From IMG/VR virus record IMGVR_UViG_3300033075_001021: 64,000 nucleotides of DNA. One strand, written 5' to 3'. The notes beneath the pieces were generated by a model that searched no databases, was not told the DNA's origin, and worked only from the letters and a program-made list of their open reading frames with translations. The stretch is from a virus. Its lineage: Duplodnaviria > Caudoviricetes. Made by a program: the position numbers and the translations under genes. Of this stretch, positions 20,127 to 64,000 are shown one piece after another (position 1 is the stretch's first letter; each line of letters starts with the position of its first letter).

Positions 20127-21200
20127 TTAGTGTTGTGTTAATAAAATGGTTTTAACATCTTTCCTAGCTGCTGCATCGTCACCATCATTCGGTGTAACCA
20201 ATACATGCCATTTCATTAATTTTGGGTTTTCTGGTGTTTTTAATAATTCAGCATAAGTAATAATATCTTTAAGTGGTAAATTGAAATATTCCGCTACTTT
20301 TTGTTTTAACAGTTGTTTATCTGAAATCTTAGCTAAATCTAACCCCTTAAATAATTCAGTTGGTACCCAAACAGATATTTTTTGTTTGTCAGTATCAATT
20401 TTTGAGCGCTCTTTTTTAGAACCACCAAGTGAGAATGCAACAGAACCAATGTTTGAAGACTTTGCAACATCGGCCATTTTAGTATAAGCATCATCAATTA
20501 TGTTAAAGCCTTCTTCTTGTAATTTCTTAATAACCTTTTCAGCAATAGACACATACTTTTTTGTAAAAAAATCACCAGAATCATTCCATCTTAAAATAAT
20601 CTTAGATTCATAACCTTTAAGTGCTTTATGTTTTGTACATATTTGCTTAAGCTCAACGTACAACTGATTTTCATATTCATTTGGATAATTCAATAAATAA
20701 TTCAAACGACGTGTCATCAAATCATATGAATTTGGGTATTGAATATATCGACCTTTTAAAGCATAACAAATAACACGACATTCACCAGCACCTGGGCAGG
20801 TATTGATTACATAAAATCTATTTTTGCTGATATCATAGGCAATTCCTCTGAAAGCTGGAACACCTGTTTTGTAGAAGTATTCATTGGGTTGACCACTCTT
20901 TAACATCTTTTCATTGGTGTTGATTAATGAATTTGGTTTTTCTGTGATTCTTTTGGCAAAATCTTCTATATCTAATTTACCACCCTTAAATAACTTTGAT
21001 TTTGAATGAATAAACGGCATCTTTGGTGAAAACTTTTCTCTTTCACCATAACCCTTGTTTGCGTTTGAAATTACCCTATTAAGATAGCTTTTTAATTCTT
21101 CTGGAGAAAGACATTCTTTTTGAACATCAGCAAAGTCTTTTTCCCAACTAATCTCATTAATATATTGGTTAATGGCCTCGTTTAATAACTTTTTAATCAT
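20127..21200 (-). CDS. Gp88-like protein
   Basis: TCPGAGEC..CYA, RWNDSGDF, YTK. Confidence 0.7.
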   Translation of the reverse strand: MIKKLLNEAINQYINEISWEKDFADVQKECLSPEELKSYLNRVISNANKGYGEREKFSPKMPFIHSKSKLFKGGKLDIEDFAKRITEKPNSLINTNEKMLKSGQPNEYFYKTGVPAFRGIAYDISKNRFYVINTCPGAGECRVICYALKGRYIQYPNSYDLMTRRLNYLLNYPNEYENQLYVELKQICTKHKALKGYESKIILRWNDSGDFFTKKYVSIAEKVIKKLQEEGFNIIDDAYTKMADVAKSSNIGSVAFSLGGSKKERSKIDTDKQKISVWVPTELFKGLDLAKISDKQLLKQKVAEYFNLPLKDIITYAELLKTPENPKLMKWHVLVTPNDGDDAAARKDVKTILLTQH

Positions 21201-23408: not shown

Positions 23409-23495
23409 TGGTGGCCCCGATGGGATTCGAACCCATGATGGTCTTGCGACATCAGTTTAAAAGACTGTTGGTATCAACCACTAACCGACGGAGCC
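23409..23495 (-). tRNA. tRNA-Lys(TTT) with long variable arm
   Basis: Loop CTTTTAA; variable arm TGTCGCAAGAC. Confidence 0.8.
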
Positions 23496-24056: not shown

Positions 24057-24133
24057 GGTGGGCCCCAAGGGAATCGAACCCTTTTTTTGACTGGTTAAAA
24101 GCCAGTGGCAATACCAAATTTTGCTAGAAGCCC
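24057..24133 (-). tRNA. tRNA-Lys(TTT), replacement copy on the HNH element
   Basis: Complete cloverleaf between the two halves of a split tRNA-Lys. Confidence 0.8.
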
Positions 24134-24156
24134 AATTTTATACCCCCACTAGCTTT

Positions 24157-24200
24157 AACGGTTTAAAAGACCGTTGCCTACACCAGTTTGCTACGAGGGC
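24157..24200 (-). pseudogene. 5' fragment of a split tRNA-Lys(TTT)
   Basis: Acceptor 5' strand, D arm and anticodon arm ACGGT CTTTTAA ACCGT; no T arm. Confidence 0.75.
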
Positions 24201-24376
24201 TTGTACATGACTTCCCCCAGCATCTCTGGTGAGAAGTCTTATCGTTTACGTTTACGTTTTATCATGTTATATTTAATCATACGTGAAATACAATTACTTT
24301 TAGCTACATCAGCCAAATATGCGTCTATTAATCTATAATCAATTTGTATATACATCTTTTTTAATTTTTAATTGTT

Positions 24377-24492
24377 GTGGGGGCGGCTGGAATTGCACCA
24401 ACGTTTTTCAAATTTACAGTTTGTTGATTAAATTTGTTTTTGCTGCAAACATTCTTAACCAGAATGTATTAGTCTAACATTTCAACACCCCC
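24377..24492 (-). tRNA. tRNA-Tyr(GTA)-like with insertion in the D region
   Basis: Acceptor, CAAA CTGTAAA TTTG arm and T-like arm; D arm replaced by a CAGCAA-motif insert. Confidence 0.5.
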
Positions 24493-24499
24493 ATATTTT

Positions 24500-24573
24500 G
24501 AGCCTCATTGGTTACTCGAAAACCATTCCCCTATTTACGAAACAGGTGCGTCACCATATACGCTTATGTGGCA
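24500..24573 (-). tRNA. tRNA-Thr(CGT)
   Basis: Cloverleaf, loop TTCGTAA. Confidence 0.75.
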
Positions 24574-24615: not shown

Positions 24616-24699
24616 GAGCCTTCGGCCAGATTCGAACTGGCGGGGGATTACTCCGCTCGCTTACAAGGCGAGTGCAATCGACCACTATGCGACGAAGGC
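24616..24699 (-). tRNA. tRNA-Thr(TGT) with long variable arm
   Basis: Loop CTTGTAA. Confidence 0.8.
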
Positions 24700-24761
24700 A
24701 TTTTGAATTTCTATGATACTTCTCCACACGGAAGTTCTATGAAATTCTAACAGTCTCATAC

Positions 24762-24852
24762 GGTGCAGATGGAGAGAATCGAACTCTCGTCCGCTGGTTG
24801 GAAGCCAGCTATAATATGTCGTTAATTCGACGAACCACTATACGACATCTGC
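24762..24852 (-). tRNA. tRNA-Gly(TCC) with extra D-loop hairpin
   Basis: Loop CTTCCAA; GTCG-AATTAA-CGAC in D loop. Confidence 0.75.
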
Positions 24853-25814: not shown

Positions 25815-25889
25815 GGTAGGGTAGACAGGACTCGAACCTGCACCGTCTTCATCCCAAATGAAGTGACCTACCAATTGGTCAACTACCCT
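25815..25889 (-). tRNA. tRNA-Pro(TGG)
   Basis: Cloverleaf. Confidence 0.9.
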
Positions 25890-25895
25890 ATAAAT

Positions 25896-25930
25896 AAAAA
25901 ACCCCAGTCAAATTATGAACTGGGGTTTTT
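25896..25930 (-). terminator. attenuator terminator of the KYTQPG tRNA operon
   Basis: CCCCAGT-loop-ACTGGGG followed by T6. Confidence 0.85.
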
Positions 25931-25948
25931 GCTTATTCCTGATTATCT

Positions 25949-26053
25949 TTACACCAAATCGATGTCTTTTACAGTATATAACATACCCAGTCCATTAAGA
26001 GGTGTGCCCCCTTGTGGTTTTTGTTTCGGTTGATATGTCGTATACTTTTTCAT
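25949..26053 (-). CDS. leader peptide MKKYTTYQPKQKPQGGTPLNGLGMLYTVKDIDLV
   Basis: Codons 2-18 are all K/Y/T/Q/P/G, matching the downstream tRNAs. Confidence 0.9.
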   Translation of the reverse strand: MKKYTTYQPKQKPQGGTPLNGLGMLYTVKDIDLV

Positions 26054-26076
26054 GACTTTATTTGTTATTGTTGTTT

Positions 26077-26118
26077 ATAAATATGTACAAAGATACAAAA
26101 GTTTTTTGAAATGTCAAA
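26077..26118 (-). promoter_or_regulatory. tandem TAnnTTTG promoter plus TATTTAT motif
   Basis: TTTGACA..GTATCTTTG then TATTTAT. Confidence 0.8.
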
Positions 26119-33385: not shown

Positions 33386-33473
33386 GTACCGCCGACGGGG
33401 GTCGAACCCGCACGTTCTTTTTCAGAACACCGCCTTGAAAGGGCGGCGACATAACCAATTAGTCGACAGCGGC
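33386..33473 (-). tRNA. tRNA-Glu(TTC) with long variable arm
   Basis: Variable arm GTTCT-GAAAA-AGAAC. Confidence 0.8.
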
Positions 33474-34360: not shown

Positions 34361-34448
34361 GCGGACCCTACGAGATTCGAACTCGCCTGTCAGATAAATC
34401 TGTTCTGGGTTGACAGCCCAGCGGCCACACCAAGCAGCCCCAGAGTCC
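34361..34448 (-). tRNA. tRNA-Asp(GTC) with long variable arm
   Basis: Variable arm CAGA-TTTA-TCTG. Confidence 0.8.
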
Positions 34449-34627: not shown

Positions 34628-34669
34628 ATAAATATATGCAAATATACGAAAGATTTTCGAAAAAGCAAA
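34628..34669 (-). promoter_or_regulatory. tandem TAnnTTTG promoter plus TATTTAT motif
   Basis: Near-identical to 61528-61569 and 40144-40185. Confidence 0.8.
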
Positions 34670-34692: not shown

Positions 34693-34766
34693 GCACGGGA
34701 AGATGTTAACGAAACACCGTCCTCAAGGCTCAACGCCTTGCGCTCTTCAACTGAGCTATTCCCGTA
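34693..34766 (-). tRNA. tRNA-like RNA (TTG loop with G33, aberrant T loop)
   Basis: Acceptor ACGGGAA/TTCCCGT, canonical D arm. Confidence 0.5.
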
Positions 34767-34769
34767 AAT

Positions 34770-35735
34770 TAAGACTGAGTACTTGGTCTTGGGAGAAGGA
34801 ATTTTTCACACAGATTTCTCTGGTAGTACACACCTACATTTCTGTTGGTATCCTCCATACAGACTGATTATAGGTTCAGCAACCACTACGTACTGCTATA
34901 TAGTTTACTCCTTTCACTCTCAGCCCCTTGGAAGGGTGAACAATCTCCCGACTGCTACTGATTAGCTACTTGTTTCAGCTCTCCACATTTCCTTGAGGTA
35001 CTCTGTGGGCCAACATATTGTCTTTCGACGCAGCTGGATAACTGTATTGTCACAGCACGTGCCCAATGCTTTCTCTTTTTTATAATTTGCATTAACAAAG
35101 TTGCAATGCCAAATAGTCATTTAGAAGGTTGTGATTGGGCTCTGAACCGTGCCACCTTTTGAGTAGTTTAGGTTCAAACAACCTCCTGTTTTCAGCCGCC
35201 AAGCTTACTCACTTTACTGAGTCTATCATCCCACCATTTCTGCCAGAGCAGCACCACCTGTTCACGTGGTAGACACAATCAATGAGTAGAAACCCATCGA
35301 TTGTTGGTTCGTCATATGGGATGACAATAACCTTTCATCAATAACTGCTGAAAATTGGCGGTCCTTAGCAGTTAAAGCAACATCAATTTGTCGGTGTTAC
35401 CACCCAAGTCAGGCCGACCAAGCCCGACCCACCCTACTTTCACGTCTGCCCGACGATACTCCATAAGATGGTATAATGCTGTGTTTCGTGTGAACAGACT
35501 TTCATCTGCGCCAAACATTCTTAGGCGATTGTTTGACTTTTCCGACTTATGAATTCATCGGTTATTCTAACGAGGAGAACACCCCCGAACCAAATTAGTA
35601 ACTGGTCAAGCCAGCTTATTCACACGGACCGTGCGTATTTCAACGCTGAAGGTTTTGGATACCCGTGCTTTTGTGTGGCTGTCTTAAGAGTGCCTCTCAT
35701 ACAACAGATTCGCGAATGGCATTTAACCCACACAT
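34770..35735 (-). ncRNA. candidate ~950-nt structured ncRNA
   Basis: Own TAnnTTTG promoter near 35748, no minus-strand ORF, GC-richer, many hairpins. Confidence 0.55.
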
Positions 35736-35914
35736 TTGTTTGGATTGCAAAGATACGAATAACTTTTTAATCCACCAAATTTTTTAAGAACTTTTTTTGA
35801 GACATCGGAGTCATTTGGCCTAACTCACCATGTTATTGTAATCGCTCGGTGTCTCAATTAGAATGCAAATATACAACAGATTTTTCAATTTTCCAAATTT
35901 TCTGTCAACTTTTT

Positions 35915-38463: not shown

Positions 38464-38551
38464 GTAGAGATGGAAGGATTTGCACCCTCACGCTTATTCC
38501 TAAGCACAAGGCTTCTCGGCCTTGCGTGTCTACTAATTTCACCACATCTCA
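38464..38551 (-). tRNA. tRNA-Leu(GAG), C33
   Basis: Loop CCGAGAA. Confidence 0.75.
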
Positions 38552-39230: not shown

Positions 39231-39316
39231 GTGGGTCCACTCGGACTCGAACCGAGATTAACTGCTCGTCTCCACCTTGTAAGGATGGGATGTTTATCCT
39301 GTTACACCATGGACCC
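39231..39316 (-). tRNA. tRNA-Val(TAC) with long variable region
   Basis: Loop CTTACAA. Confidence 0.8.
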
Positions 39317-39893: not shown

Positions 39894-39981
39894 GAACCCA
39901 TGACAGGATTTGAACCTGTGGTGAGGGATAACCCTTACAGTTTTGCAGACTGTCATCTTCGGCCACTCGAATCACATGGGC
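39894..39981 (-). tRNA. tRNA-Cys(GCA) with long variable arm
   Basis: Variable arm AGGG-TTAT-CCCT. Confidence 0.8.
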
Positions 39982-40143: not shown

Positions 40144-40185
40144 ATAAATATATGCAAATATACGAAAGAATTTTTAAAAAGCAAA
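40144..40185 (-). promoter_or_regulatory. tandem TAnnTTTG promoter plus TATTTAT motif
   Basis: TTTGC..TTCGTATATTTGCATATATTTAT. Confidence 0.8.
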
Positions 40186-48427: not shown

Positions 48428-49495
48428 TTATTTTAAACCAACTTCTTCATTTTGCTTTGCAAAGAAATATAGTCGGCATCTTTCAGAAACCTTTGAGTTA
48501 ATATCCTTTGGCTCCAACCCAGCTTCAGCAATGGTATCGCTTTCTTCCTTCATGATGTCTTGAACAACATTTCTGATAAAGTCACCCATCTTCTTGATGT
48601 CGATGCTACCACCGTTCATAAGGTCAAAGGTCTTGTCAAGCATTTGTTCCAAACGCCAGTCAGGTGTAACCTTATTAACCACATCGATAATCTTGTTTAG
48701 CTTAGCATCATCAACTGGCTTTAAGGTTGTTACCTTTGAAGCCTTGCTGTGCTTTTCACCCTTAGACTTGAAACGATAAACCTTACCTTCTGGAGTCATG
48801 TGTGAAAATACAACACCTTCACCAATACCCACGTGTCCGAAAGCCTTACCAACAGGACATTCTTCTTCAACCTCAAGAGTCATTTCAATTATCTTGTTTT
48901 GAGCCAATTGAGGCATATTGAAGTCGATTTCGACAGAATAGGTCTTGTAGTCTTCAATGTTGTAAATCCTAGCCTCTGGGCATCTTAAATCAGAAGAATC
49001 AACCCAATAAGCAACTGGCTTGTCATCTTCACTCTTTGGATGCGGAGTAATCTTCACACCAAAGATGAACATGGACTTATCAATGTTAGAGATTGCTACG
49101 CTCTTTTGAATACCCTTACCAGCCCACTCACCATAGATAGTGATAGTGTTTTCCTTCATGTCAAGATTATGCTTTAAGCTGATATGATAGAATAGGTTCT
49201 GGAACGCACCTCTGTTGGTTTCAACAAAGAACGCAGAGCCAGCATTATCCTTTTCAGGTGTAATGATGTTCTCTCTGGATTGAGCCCACATACCTTCCAA
49301 TTCGTTGTAGGACACACCGAAGTTGGTACCATGAAGCTTGATTGTACCCTTAAAAGTCAATACAGGCTTTGGTCTTGATGGGTCGTAAATGGCATCGCCA
49401 TTCTCGTCCAATCCAACGAAATTATAGCTCCTATTGATATCAGCAATCACGTTCTTGAATTGCTCGATGCTTGGAAATGATATATGCTTCTTCAT
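48428..49495 (-). CDS. Rnl2-family RNA ligase
   Basis: KLHGTN, YGEW, GEGVV, FKSK. Confidence 0.85.
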   Translation of the reverse strand: MKKHISFPSIEQFKNVIADINRSYNFVGLDENGDAIYDPSRPKPVLTFKGTIKLHGTNFGVSYNELEGMWAQSRENIITPEKDNAGSAFFVETNRGAFQNLFYHISLKHNLDMKENTITIYGEWAGKGIQKSVAISNIDKSMFIFGVKITPHPKSEDDKPVAYWVDSSDLRCPEARIYNIEDYKTYSVEIDFNMPQLAQNKIIEMTLEVEEECPVGKAFGHVGIGEGVVFSHMTPEGKVYRFKSKGEKHSKASKVTTLKPVDDAKLNKIIDVVNKVTPDWRLEQMLDKTFDLMNGGSIDIKKMGDFIRNVVQDIMKEESDTIAEAGLEPKDINSKVSERCRLYFFAKQNEEVGLK

Positions 49496-51080: not shown

Positions 51081-52214
51081 TTACAACATTTTGTACAATT
51101 TTTTATCATCGTACTCCATCATGTATTCCTTTATGGTTCCAACCTTGCCTGTTTGAAGTGCGAAATACAAGCCTGTAAAGGAATCCAGACCCATTTTCTT
51201 TGTAACTTCGAATACCGCAGTAGCATACGCTTTCCTTTCGGCAGCTGTTATGTTCTTTGGCTTTCTTGGTTCCAATTCAACCCAAGCTTCGTTAAGCTTA
51301 GCTATCAACGCATCGTAGCTAGCCTTTAACCTGAAGATTTCTTCACGTCTTTCTGGGAAAGTCGCAGCAAATTCTTCGATTTCATTGGCTTTAACGACAG
51401 TCAATATGTTATGCTCAGCAGTTTTTGACTTTAAGTGGTGAACCGCAACATACGCTGGGTTCTTGATTTTAACACGATTGAAGTTACCGTCCACAACCAC
51501 ATAACCTTCTTCAGACCATGGCATACCTTCAAATGTTCTTATCAAAGCACCGAAGTCCTTTGCGTTCAAATCAAAAGCTTTAACCAACGGGATACCAGTC
51601 AACAAAGAAAAGTTTTTCAACACTTCATAGTTGTCCTCAACCAAAGTTTCTGCATTTCTTGCGGCCAATAATGTAATAGATGATTCACCGTGAGGCTTTA
51701 CTACTATATTATATGGTGTTGTTAATTCAAATACAAAGGTTGTTTTCTTGAAAGACTTGAACAATGATTTCTCAATATTATACTTTTCTTTCAATACCTT
51801 CCAGAATAACTCATTGAAAGTAGTTCCCATCTTGTTGTTTACTTCCCCTTCACCTTCAGCAGTACCAGTAGTTGCAGCAAACCATTCTTGCTTATGCCAA
51901 TCCCAATAAACTTGAATCATTGTACCATCGACTTTTTCAAGTACAACGGCAGAATTCCAGTCTATCTTAGCGGCTTGTGATTCACCGTGATTGAAGAACT
52001 TTCTGAATGACATAGACATAACCTTCCATGTATCCCTTTCAAGAATAAGACCACGACAGTCTTGTACCTCTGGGCATGACATATCAGATTCAATTTGGTC
52101 ATATTTCAAATGAATCTTTGAGGTATATGTACGACATTTTAATTTAAAATCTTGTATTGCCTTAGCTAACCCAAATTTTTTTATATACTTAACTACTGAT
52201 AACTCCTGTATCAT
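51081..52214 (-). CDS. Rnl1 (T4 RnlA-like) RNA ligase
   Basis: DCRGLI, KFFNHGE, EKVDGT, FEL, EGYVV, RVKIKN. Confidence 0.9.
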   Translation of the reverse strand: MIQELSVVKYIKKFGLAKAIQDFKLKCRTYTSKIHLKYDQIESDMSCPEVQDCRGLILERDTWKVMSMSFRKFFNHGESQAAKIDWNSAVVLEKVDGTMIQVYWDWHKQEWFAATTGTAEGEGEVNNKMGTTFNELFWKVLKEKYNIEKSLFKSFKKTTFVFELTTPYNIVVKPHGESSITLLAARNAETLVEDNYEVLKNFSLLTGIPLVKAFDLNAKDFGALIRTFEGMPWSEEGYVVVDGNFNRVKIKNPAYVAVHHLKSKTAEHNILTVVKANEIEEFAATFPERREEIFRLKASYDALIAKLNEAWVELEPRKPKNITAAERKAYATAVFEVTKKMGLDSFTGLYFALQTGKVGTIKEYMMEYDDKKLYKML

Positions 52215-52938
52215 TATTTCTTTTTTTATGTGACTCTGAAATTTTTCTTTTTGTTTCTTCACTCAAAACACGCCCACTTCTTTTTTTACTTTGTTCAATT
52301 TTTAATTGTATTGCCGCATCAACACCCATAATTTCTTCATACGTTTTACCTTTATTCGGATTTTTCCACCCTTTTCTAGCCTTAGATAAACTTTCTTTAT
52401 GTTTATCTGACATTGGTTTTTTCTTTCCTTTATTAGATTCTGAAATTTTTCTTTTTGTTTCCTCACTTAAAGGACGAAATTTTTTCTTTTTACCTTTTAA
52501 TAATTCCGACATTTTTTTTGCTGTTTCTGATGCCCACGGTTTTTGTTTTCCTTTATGTGCATCACTTATTTTTTTCTTATGTTCATCAGTTAATTTTTTA
52601 CCTTTATGAAATTTTGAAACATTAGCTCGAAGAACTTCTTTTTTAGGGTTATTTGAAAATGTATCACCCCCAGTGCCCCCCTCTGCAATATTATAACCAC
52701 CAATATTTTTACTAATAAACTCTTTTTCTTTTTCGTTTAAAGTATCGATATTGTCACATTCAAATATTATTTCCCATTTAAAATTATGAAAACCATATTT
52801 TTTAATCGCATTATAAAATAACCATTTCTTTTTATTAAAGGCTAATTTATGTGATTGTATTCTTTTTTCTAATGTCCCCTTTGTTTTACCAATATAAAAT
52901 TTACCATTTATTGTGTTGGTTGCTTTGTAAATTATCAT
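52189..52938 (-). CDS. GIY-YIG homing endonuclease with NUMOD3 repeats
   Basis: IYKATNTINGKFYIGKT, GYNIAEGG, SEETKRKISES repeats. Confidence 0.9.
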   Translation of the reverse strand: MIIYKATNTINGKFYIGKTKGTLEKRIQSHKLAFNKKKWLFYNAIKKYGFHNFKWEIIFECDNIDTLNEKEKEFISKNIGGYNIAEGGTGGDTFSNNPKKEVLRANVSKFHKGKKLTDEHKKKISDAHKGKQKPWASETAKKMSELLKGKKKKFRPLSEETKRKISESNKGKKKPMSDKHKESLSKARKGWKNPNKGKTYEEIMGVDAAIQLKIEQSKKRSGRVLSEETKRKISESHKKRNNDTGVISS

Positions 52939-59157: not shown

Positions 59158-59245
59158 TGGAGGATTGGGTGGGATTCGAACCCACGATGGTCTTGCGACA
59201 CTGGGTTAACAGCCCAGACTTTTCGGCCTCTAAAGCAACCAATCC
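59158..59245 (-). tRNA. tRNA-Asn(GTT) with long variable arm
   Basis: Variable arm TGTCGCAAGAC, CCA. Confidence 0.8.
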
Positions 59246-60041: not shown

Positions 60042-60133
60042 GGGCGCATGATGGGATTCGAACCCACGGTGTTTGATATAATCTCATTCTGGTTCACAGC
60101 CAGATTCCATCGACCACTAGGACAACACACGCC
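60042..60133 (-). tRNA. tRNA-His(GTG) with long variable region
   Basis: Loop CTGTGAA. Confidence 0.75.
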
Positions 60134-61527: not shown

Positions 61528-61569
61528 ATAAATATATGCAAATATACGAAAGATTTTTTAAAAAGCAAA
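61528..61569 (-). promoter_or_regulatory. tandem TAnnTTTG promoter plus TATTTAT motif
   Basis: Part of a ~70-bp near-identical repeat (61489-61558 vs 34589-34658). Confidence 0.8.
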
Positions 61570-62783: not shown

Positions 62784-63941
62784 TTACAACAATTTTTGAA
62801 AATTATTATATTCAGCCCTAGCGATTGCGTCTCCAAGCTCTTTACCCTGCTTTAAACCATGTGTTTTCATTAGTTCTTCACCAGAAACTGTCAATTTGAA
62901 TACTATAAAAGCTTTAAGTAGCTTAGAATCAATATTTTCATGACCGCCAAATTTACTAATCTGACCATCTGTTACACCTGAAACTTTTTGCATTCTTTTA
63001 AGCTGAACAGCTGTTTCAGGTGTAAGATTTAACAAATTAAGTAAAAATGTAATACCTCTAATTTCGTCAACGGTATATTTCAAGTTGTTTAGTTGTTTAG
63101 AAACAACGCTTGGATTATTCCCAACCAAAAGAGTGCTGATAACCAGAATAGGGTCTCTTTCTTCAAGAAAATCGTTGTTTACTCTCAATCCTTTGAATAT
63201 CCAATCAAACAGACCATATTTGTCAATAAGGCTCAAAAAGTGTTTAACAGACTTAGCTGATTGGATACCTTTGATAAACTCATCGCGAATCCTTTCACCT
63301 GAAATACCATCAAGACTAGCATCGTTTCTTAATGCAGAGTCAACCTGAGGGTCCAAACCTGACCCAAACCTACCAGCAAATCTTATAGCTCTAAGAATTC
63401 TAAGTCTATCTTCGTTAAACCTTTCTTCAGGGGTACCCACGGTTCTTACTACACCGTTTTTAAGGTCTTCTATGCCACCCACAAGGTCAACAACCTCATG
63501 GGTATCTATGTCATAAAAAAGGGCGTTAATAGTCAAATCTCGACGTTTAACATCATTCTCTATGTTGGTGAACTTTACGGAATCTGGTCTTCGAGAATCA
63601 GAAGACCCAATATCTTCACGAAAAGTAGCGATTTCGTATTCCCCTTGGTTGGTAAAAACATTGATTACACCAAACGCTTTACCTGTTGGGAGTGTCCTGA
63701 ACCCAGCTTGGGCCATGATTTGTTCAACCCTATCTGGAAGGGCGTCAGTGGCCAAATCAAAGTCTTTTGGCTGTTTACCCAACAAAGCATCACGCACAGC
63801 ACCACCAACAACATAAAGCTTATGGCCGTTATTTTTAAAAACGTCCTTTATAGCCAATATATCGCTAGGTATGTTGATATCGTATTTAACCCTATTTTCC
63901 ATTAGTTTGAAACGCAATGATTCGCGTATAAAATTTTTCAT
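62784..63941 (-). CDS. cca: CCA-adding tRNA nucleotidyltransferase (class II)
   Basis: VGGAVRD..KDFDLAT, EIATFR, RRDLTINA, EDRLRILRAIRF, SGERIRDE. Confidence 0.9.
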   Translation of the reverse strand: MKNFIRESLRFKLMENRVKYDINIPSDILAIKDVFKNNGHKLYVVGGAVRDALLGKQPKDFDLATDALPDRVEQIMAQAGFRTLPTGKAFGVINVFTNQGEYEIATFREDIGSSDSRRPDSVKFTNIENDVKRRDLTINALFYDIDTHEVVDLVGGIEDLKNGVVRTVGTPEERFNEDRLRILRAIRFAGRFGSGLDPQVDSALRNDASLDGISGERIRDEFIKGIQSAKSVKHFLSLIDKYGLFDWIFKGLRVNNDFLEERDPILVISTLLVGNNPSVVSKQLNNLKYTVDEIRGITFLLNLLNLTPETAVQLKRMQKVSGVTDGQISKFGGHENIDSKLLKAFIVFKLTVSGEELMKTHGLKQGKELGDAIARAEYNNFQKLL

Positions 63942-64000
63942 TCTATACAAAGATACACCATTTTTATCAGACGACAAAATCTTTTTAGGCATATTTTCGT

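Follow-up and report, generated by a model that had tools for sequence, protein, structure and literature searches.

A putative leader-peptide attenuator ahead of tRNA genes in an uncultured giant phage

Introduction

On the minus strand of the virus record IMGVR_UViG_3300033075_001021, a block of tRNA genes is preceded by a small open reading frame whose first codons are confined to the amino acids which those tRNAs serve, and between the two lies a transcription terminator. Does this arrangement allow the phage to regulate its tRNA genes by ribosome-mediated attenuation? An earlier reading of the DNA, made from its letters alone (the sequence-only reading), had interpreted the locus as an attenuator responding to Lys, Tyr, Thr, Gln, Pro and Gly. 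Here, we examined this interpretation on the whole stretch of 64,000 nucleotides, referred to as the window, and on related phages.

In Proteobacteria, trpL, hisL, pheL and leuL are leader-peptide attenuators of amino-acid biosynthesis operons. Multivalent leaders are represented by thrL (Thr/Ile) and by those of ilvGMEDA and ilvBN (Ile/Val/Leu), and in E. coli the pheST attenuator with its pheM leader has the aminoacyl-tRNA synthetase for one amino acid as its output. Clusters of tRNA genes are carried by the phages T4 and T5, by large vibriophages and by mycobacteriophages. To our knowledge, no cis-acting sensor of tRNA abundance has been recognized. No description of leader-peptide control of tRNA genes, the known phage tRNA clusters included, was found in the full-text literature that we searched, a search that left most subscription journals outside its scope.

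A tRNA array headed by four leader-terminator units

The window is AT-rich, phage-like DNA (35% GC) in which ARAGORN called 56 tRNA genes, 56 of 56 on the minus strand. It also codes for a CCA-adding enzyme, two RNA ligases, a DNA ligase and helicases. The promoter pattern TTTG-N18-22-TAnnTTTG was found 19 times on the minus strand and four times on the plus strand. TTTG followed at a distance of 18-22 nt by TAnnTTTG is typical of Bacteroidota, to which the host is presumed to belong.

Inspection of the sequence after each promoter revealed a header of promoter, leader, terminator and tRNA genes in four places, at 61569, 40185, 34669 and 26118 (units A to D). The leader at 61569 draws on codons for W, S, H, I, M, N and R, that at 40185 on C, V and L, that at 34669 on D, F, E, A and (N), and that at 26118 on P, Q, Y, T, K and G. 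Each of these sets is identical with the amino acids served by the downstream tRNAs, and the four sets partition all 20 amino acids. When leader codons 2-18 were tabulated against the tRNA sets in a 4x4 table, the association was strong (chi2 = 121, p = 9e-22). The three units other than that at 26118, all on the minus strand, extend over 61569-61335, 40185-40000 and 34669-34470 and stand before the W/S/H/I/M/N/R, C/V/L and D/F/E/A tRNA blocks.

Several further features of the array were recorded. Units A and C have one common 5' UTR with a small GGG-AAA-CCC hairpin, while units B and D have another. A tRNA repair kit adjoins the array on the minus strand and consists of the CCA-adding enzyme (62784-63992), a T4 Rnl1-like RNA ligase (51081-52262) and an Rnl2-like RNA ligase (48428-49495). 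Inside the array, directly before tRNA-Gln 34693-34765 and downstream of the promoters at 35897 and 35779, a match to GOLLD RNA (RF02032) occupies 34772-35186 on the minus strand; at 74 bits (E = 5e-19) it stays below the gathering score of 150. About one third of the Lys, Thr, Glu, Asp, Val, Cys, Asn, His, Ile and Pro tRNAs are 83-92 nt long, apparently by virtue of an extra long arm, and short variable arms are normal for all of these amino acids (examples are 23409-23495, 24616-24699, 33386-33473, 34361-34448, 39231-39316, 39894-39981, 59158-59245 and 60042-60132). At 24133-24500 (minus strand), a tRNA-like pair of acceptor and T-arm is separated by a long insert; ARAGORN called no gene there with introns allowed, and Rfam reported in this neighbourhood only a weak tRNA match (24141-24200, 22 bits) and a tmRNA-like match (24761-24852, 24 bits). 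The Leu block contains, at 38464-38551 on the minus strand, an ARAGORN tRNA with an unreadable 2-base anticodon. In the related loci L088-L090 and L103, ARAGORN called tRNAs with a CUA (amber-reading) anticodon.

Parts of the unit at 26118

The unit at 26118 lies on the minus strand and starts with a Bacteroidota-type promoter (26118-26088), in which TTTG (-33) is followed after 19 nt by TATCTTTG (-7). This promoter is kept in the relatives L001 and L004, and an A-rich element ahead of it is common to other promoters of the array. The transcription start is unmapped and was inferred from promoter geometry. As judged from sequence and folds, the 5' UTR of about 29 nt (26082-26054) is A-rich and unstructured. 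The leader ORF, which begins with ATG 29-35 nt past the -7 box, comprises 34 codons plus TAA (26053-25949) and is kept in eight relatives.

Codons 2-18 of this ORF (26050-26000) had been claimed to specify exclusively K, Y, T, Q, P and G by means of varied synonymous codons, and this was borne out by the sequence for 17 of 17 positions, with 11 different codons in use (AAA, AAG, TAT, ACG, ACA, CAA, CCG, CCA, CCT, GGG and GGC). The six residues make up a fraction of 0.334 of the 10,763 amino acids encoded by the long ORFs of the window, and against this background 17 out of 17 has a probability of p = 7.9e-9. The longest run of the same composition elsewhere is seven residues in the long ORFs and six in the other small ORFs (375 in all, both strands). 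Chance is excluded as the source of the codon run. Within the ORF, 17 of the 18 codons before the antiterminator box belong to the set versus three of 11 in the tail.

Three segments of the leader are assigned to alternative helices. Region 1 (26046-26032) provides the 5' strand of a long-range 1:2 helix and contains an ACATAT motif that is common to four of four leader types. The antiterminator box (region 2a, ATGGACTGGG, 25995-25986) pairs with 25924-25915, and region 2b (25987-25973, starting with GGTATGTT) supplies the 3' strand of the 1:2 helix and overlaps the box by two G. An A-rich spacer of 19-20 nt (25948-25929) leads from the stop codon to the terminator; over 32 units the corresponding distance has a median of 24 nt and a range of 12-37 nt. 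The intrinsic terminator (regions 3 and 4, 25930-25896) proved to be present exactly where it had been proposed, with a hairpin of 13 pairs, a computed energy of -17.9 kcal/mol and six T at 25901-25896. Overall, the leader RNA folds much better than its shuffled versions (z = -4.5).

The T-tract of the terminator ends at 25896 and tRNA-Pro starts at 25889, a gap of 6 nt. As there is no room for a promoter between these positions, this tRNA-Pro must be made by read-through only. The tRNAs that can be reached solely through the terminator, together with interspersed small ORFs, fill 25889-23121 and comprise Pro(tgg), a weak second Pro, Gln(ctg), two Gln(ttg), two Tyr(gta), Thr(tgt), Thr(cgt), two Lys(ttt) and Lys(ctt). 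An internal promoter, recognized by its pattern as a near copy of the promoter at 26118, is located at 23110-23080, and the last tRNAs of the cluster, Gly(tcc) at 22164-22094, Gly(gcc) and Thr(ggt) (22164-21620 together), are downstream of both this promoter and the attenuator. Amino acids outside K, Y, T, Q, P and G are not represented among the tRNAs from the terminator to the end of the array. The tally given by the sequence-only reading holds for three Gln, two Tyr, three Thr and three Lys tRNAs and has to be corrected for the remainder: there are two tRNAs for Gly (gcc and tcc), not three, and only one firm tRNA for Pro. The evidence for the second tRNA-Pro(tgg) (25747-25665, 83 nt) is weak, with a call by ARAGORN at relaxed settings only and an Rfam score of 24 bits, below the cut-off.

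Leaders follow their tRNAs in related phages

Relatives were sought via the GP88-like gene that immediately follows the array (20127-21200) and not via the leader, so that the sample is unbiased with regard to the latter. Homologues of this gene number 334 in the protein collection, and IMG/VR yielded 467 related loci. The layout of the unit is kept in relatives whose GP88 genes are 37-86% identical to that of the window. Leaders of the K/Y/T/Q/P/G type (D-type) are present in L001 (86% GP88 identity), L010, L004, L018, L025, L032, L034 and L068 (39%). Their peptides drift in sequence while the run stays within the same six residues, of which up to 23 are consecutive. Comparison of the window with L001 yielded identities of 97% for leader codons 1-25, 94% for the terminator, 86% for the adjacent protein gene, 58% for tRNA-Pro and 37% for the leader tail, and synonymous sites in codons 1-25 are conserved. 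These segment identities point to constraint on RNA and codons, not on protein. The low value for the tRNA-Pro after the attenuator (25889-25815 compared with 1362-1434 of L001) is an observation in its own right, as it is found though leader and terminator are 94-97% identical.

Searches by other routes were also conducted. Among isolated phages, a nucleotide search gave a match to tRNA-Pro only, and a protein search for GP88 had no hit. No relative was obtained when the 639-aa neighbour served as the single query protein, and an exact scan for promoter words returned one unrelated-looking phage (L002) without leaders.

In a number of relatives, the tRNA genes are grouped in other ways. The complete 362-kb phage behind L034 (L088-L090) has its Cys-Val-Leu and Phe-Asp-Ala tRNAs in one cluster, and this fused cluster is preceded by a single leader that mixes L, D, C, A, V and F and lacks E. 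In the same phage the tRNA-Glu resides in the D cluster, the only such case, and here the D leader has gained a Glu codon. In distant phages (L094-L103, GP88 37-55% identical) the grouping of the tRNAs is very different, and every leader agrees with the group that it precedes. Examples include H/Q/P codons ahead of Pro, His and Gln tRNAs, Y/K codons ahead of Lys and Tyr tRNAs, seven Gln codons ahead of four Gln tRNAs, and V/I/K/S/H codons ahead of Lys, Val, Ile, Ser and His tRNAs. This tracking of regrouped tRNAs by the leaders is the strongest evidence for the attenuator reading.

For a count that does not depend on amino acids, units were called blindly on three grounds: how strong the terminator is, whether a short ORF ends 10-50 nt before it, and whether a tRNA lies no more than 600 nt away. 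The caller returned 34 units, of which 32, from more than 10 phages, are genuine. The two false calls (G001 53293 and L004 9505) are ORFs over tRNA hairpins, and the D unit of L004, which has a weak terminator, was missed. Both false units were retained in the test of association between leaders and tRNAs and were dropped only for the comparison of codons before the box with tail codons. Codons for 158 of 172 tRNA identities were present in leader codons 2-21 of the 34 units (odds ratio 22, p = 2e-43), which leaves 14 identities without a leader codon, such as Ala in the D cluster of L025. Across the family, the match between leaders and tRNAs is less than perfect. The true assignment of leaders to clusters ranked first of 24, 24, 24 and 120 permutations in four genomes and second of 24 in a fifth. 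Moreover, 68% of the codons before the box matched the tRNA set of their own unit versus 24% of the tail codons of the same ORFs (p = 4e-25). A test of codon boxes for Arg, Ser and Leu came out at 18 to 9 only and is no more than suggestive, partly because ARAGORN misses some tRNAs. The permutation and association tests were not corrected for shared ancestry of homologous units; given the many independent regroupings, shared ancestry is unlikely to explain the results.

Pairing of the leader with the terminator

According to the sequence-only reading, GGACTGGG (25993-25986) is able to sequester an arm of the terminator. In silico this capacity was confirmed, as the segment sits in a 10-bp complement (25995-25986) whose partner, 25924-25915, consists of the terminator 5' arm and the first loop bases. 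The resulting duplex of 10 bp has a computed energy of -16.4 kcal/mol and z = -4.1 versus shuffled leaders. Each unit has such a complement around nt +58 to +80 of its ORF, where the stretch that directly follows the codon run matches the unit's own terminator over the 5' arm and the first bases of the loop. Over the 34 units, the box averages -14.3 kcal/mol with its own terminator versus -9.9 kcal/mol with those of other units (permutation p <= 1e-5), and the mean z against shuffled leaders is -2.4. An alignment of nine sequences has 91% of the core box helix paired and changes on both sides in three of six pairs; pairing drops to 21-54% when the partner is slid along. Compensatory changes in box and terminator were found in both the D and the B unit of L004.

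The 1:2 helix, which is conserved, joins codons 3-8 (26046-26032) with 25987-25973, directly after the box. In this helix 78% of cells are paired and six of 14 pairs have changes on both sides. It adds about 8 kcal/mol to the terminator state and overlaps the box by just 2 nt. Full-length energies computed for the unit at 26118 put the terminator state ahead by 10.7 kcal/mol in the absence of a ribosome and by 14.3 kcal/mol with a ribosome on the stop codon. With a ribosome stalled at codons 4-12, this lead shrinks to 2.7-4.1 kcal/mol. In the same in silico analysis, the box is free when the A site is at codon 15 or earlier and is covered by the ribosome from codon 16 on.

Equilibrium folds of a transcript cut before the 3' arm gave a pairing of 0.70 between 5' arm and box without a ribosome and of 0.71 with a stalled one. 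These folds reveal no effect of the ribosome, which means that only the full-length energies speak for the 1:2 helix as a protective element; for the unit at 26118 such a role is suggested by modelling and remains unproven. We make no claim that the 1:2 helix by itself prevents antitermination, since the cut-transcript folds failed to separate the no-ribosome from the stalled situation.

Proposed mechanism

The attenuator interpretation put forward in the sequence-only reading is supported by these findings: each feature that it requires at the level of sequence was found, and across related phages these features co-vary. We conclude, with a probability of roughly 0.75, that the unit at 26118 is a ribosome-mediated (leader-peptide) transcription attenuator that regulates the phage's own tRNA genes, a function that is inferred without RNA-level or other experimental data. 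The phage probably makes the tRNAs of this block only when ribosomes are short of them, in the style of the trp operon.

In the model, transcription would start from the promoter at 26118 and the leader would be translated at once. As long as the supply of charged Lys, Tyr, Thr, Gln, Pro and Gly tRNAs is ample, the ribosome would be expected to cross codons 2-18 and the box (codons 20-23) and to reach the stop codon. With a ribosome over it, the box would be unable to hold the terminator 5' arm and the 1:2 helix could re-form behind the ribosome; the hairpin 25930-25897 would then form and RNA polymerase would stop 6 nt before tRNA-Pro. Should any of the cognate tRNAs be scarce, the ribosome is predicted to stall within codons 2 to about 15, covering region 1 and leaving the box free. 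Once the 5' arm has been made, the free box could pair with it, the terminator would be blocked and the polymerase would enter the tRNA block. Since the antiterminator is made before the 3' arm, a stall should lead to read-through according to classical logic, and since the sensor reads products of its own operon, it would exert negative feedback on tRNA supply.

Parts, geometry, energetics and co-variation are documented by the results above. The model adds by inference that the ribosome stalls, that it is coupled with the polymerase and that the switch works in the direction given. It also assumes that the presumed Bacteroidota host couples transcription tightly with translation. It counts against full control by the attenuator that Gly(tcc), Gly(gcc) and Thr(ggt) are also behind the internal promoter.

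Alternative explanations

The alternative that survives best, though we consider it unlikely, is that the attenuator senses general translation capacity or the stage of infection and not specific tRNAs, with the codon match as secondary tuning; in variants of this idea, any slowing of ribosomes, or the lack of translation early in infection, would be the signal. The box of the unit at 26118 pairs with the 5' arm equally well without a ribosome, so that an untranslated leader might be read through, and it is established for attenuators that loss of a tRNA cannot be distinguished from amino-acid starvation. However, a general sensor would have no need for leader sets that track the downstream tRNAs through many regroupings, nor for the contrast between codons before the box and those in the tail.

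We see very little scope for the possibility that the ORF encodes an ordinary small phage protein, that the terminator is leaky with the tRNAs arising by constitutive read-through, and that leader codons and tRNAs match by a mere coincidence of composition. The array does commonly contain small ORFs that have promoters of their own, e.g. 26320-26123, and low-complexity peptides exist. Such a coincidence has to be set against p = 8e-9 for the unit at 26118 alone and against matched units that number four in the window and 32 across the family. Furthermore, composition is kept while the peptide drifts, the C-terminal tail is unconserved (37%), synonymous sites in codons 1-25 are conserved and the box co-varies with the terminator.

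That leader translation controls processing or stability of the tRNA precursor (by ribosome protection or stall-induced cleavage) and not termination is hardly tenable, because this idea, compatible as it is with a common transcript for leader and tRNAs and with the RNA repair and processing genes of the phage, leaves unexplained both the strong hairpin with its U-tract before the first tRNA in every unit and the co-variation of the box with the 5' arm of that hairpin.

Discussion

As a putative tRNA-sensing attenuator, the unit at 26118 has much in common with trpL, hisL, pheL and leuL: a short leader, presumably translated, in which regulatory codons form a run, an intrinsic terminator before the first regulated gene, alternative 1:2, 2:3 and 3:4 helices, the first of them in a role that rests on modelling, and an antiterminator that is weaker than the terminator and would win kinetically. 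Unlike these, the phage unit would regulate tRNA genes, and the sensed molecules would therefore be products of the operon itself. It is also phage-encoded, with a Bacteroidota-type promoter and a leader without Shine-Dalgarno sequence, and its stop codon comes long after the box, some 20 nt ahead of the terminator. Like thrL and the ilv leaders, one leader samples several amino acids of one operon, yet the phage units sample six of them (seven at 61569), each set reflects which tRNA genes are present and not a pathway, and four units cover all 20. The resemblance to pheST lies in leader-peptide attenuation of a component of the translation apparatus, the proposed output in the phage being the tRNAs themselves.

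With T-box riboswitches the unit shares a terminator/antiterminator switch that reports tRNA status. However, T-boxes bind uncharged tRNA directly and do without an ORF, whereas the phage unit has a leader ORF. Rfam has no T-box match in the window, and over the unit it returned no known leader, riboswitch or T-box but only noise with E >= 0.25. Specifically, the Rfam leader families for Trp, His, Leu and Thr gave no match over the unit at E <= 1 or at the gathering score; the genes downstream are tRNA genes. As in T4, T5, the large vibriophages and the mycobacteriophages, the tRNA genes are arranged in arrays with intervening small ORFs, beside genes for tRNA repair.

Leader-peptide attenuation has so far been tied to genes of amino-acid supply, and here it would regulate tRNA genes. 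If true, this would amount to direct feedback of the product on tRNA abundance, a form of tRNA homeostasis, would explain how giant phages dose 50-60 tRNA genes, and would imply coupling of transcription and translation in Bacteroidota hosts. Compact and modular, the units would each sense as many as seven tRNA species simultaneously and could be used to report when anticodon nucleases deplete tRNAs. The independent regroupings of tRNAs with matching leaders can be regarded as natural experiments that already support the design rule.

For the family as a whole, we are inclined to believe, with less assurance than for the single unit, that a large clade of uncultured giant Bacteroidota phages runs a self-sensing network of tRNA supply, in which a leader read with the block's own tRNAs gates each block, so that its transcription sets in when these tRNAs are needed and is stopped by the tRNAs that it yields. 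With such a network, phage translation would not depend on the tRNA pool of the host. Beside the CCA-adding enzyme and RNA ligases of the phage, the network could also be an answer to tRNA-cleaving defences of the host.
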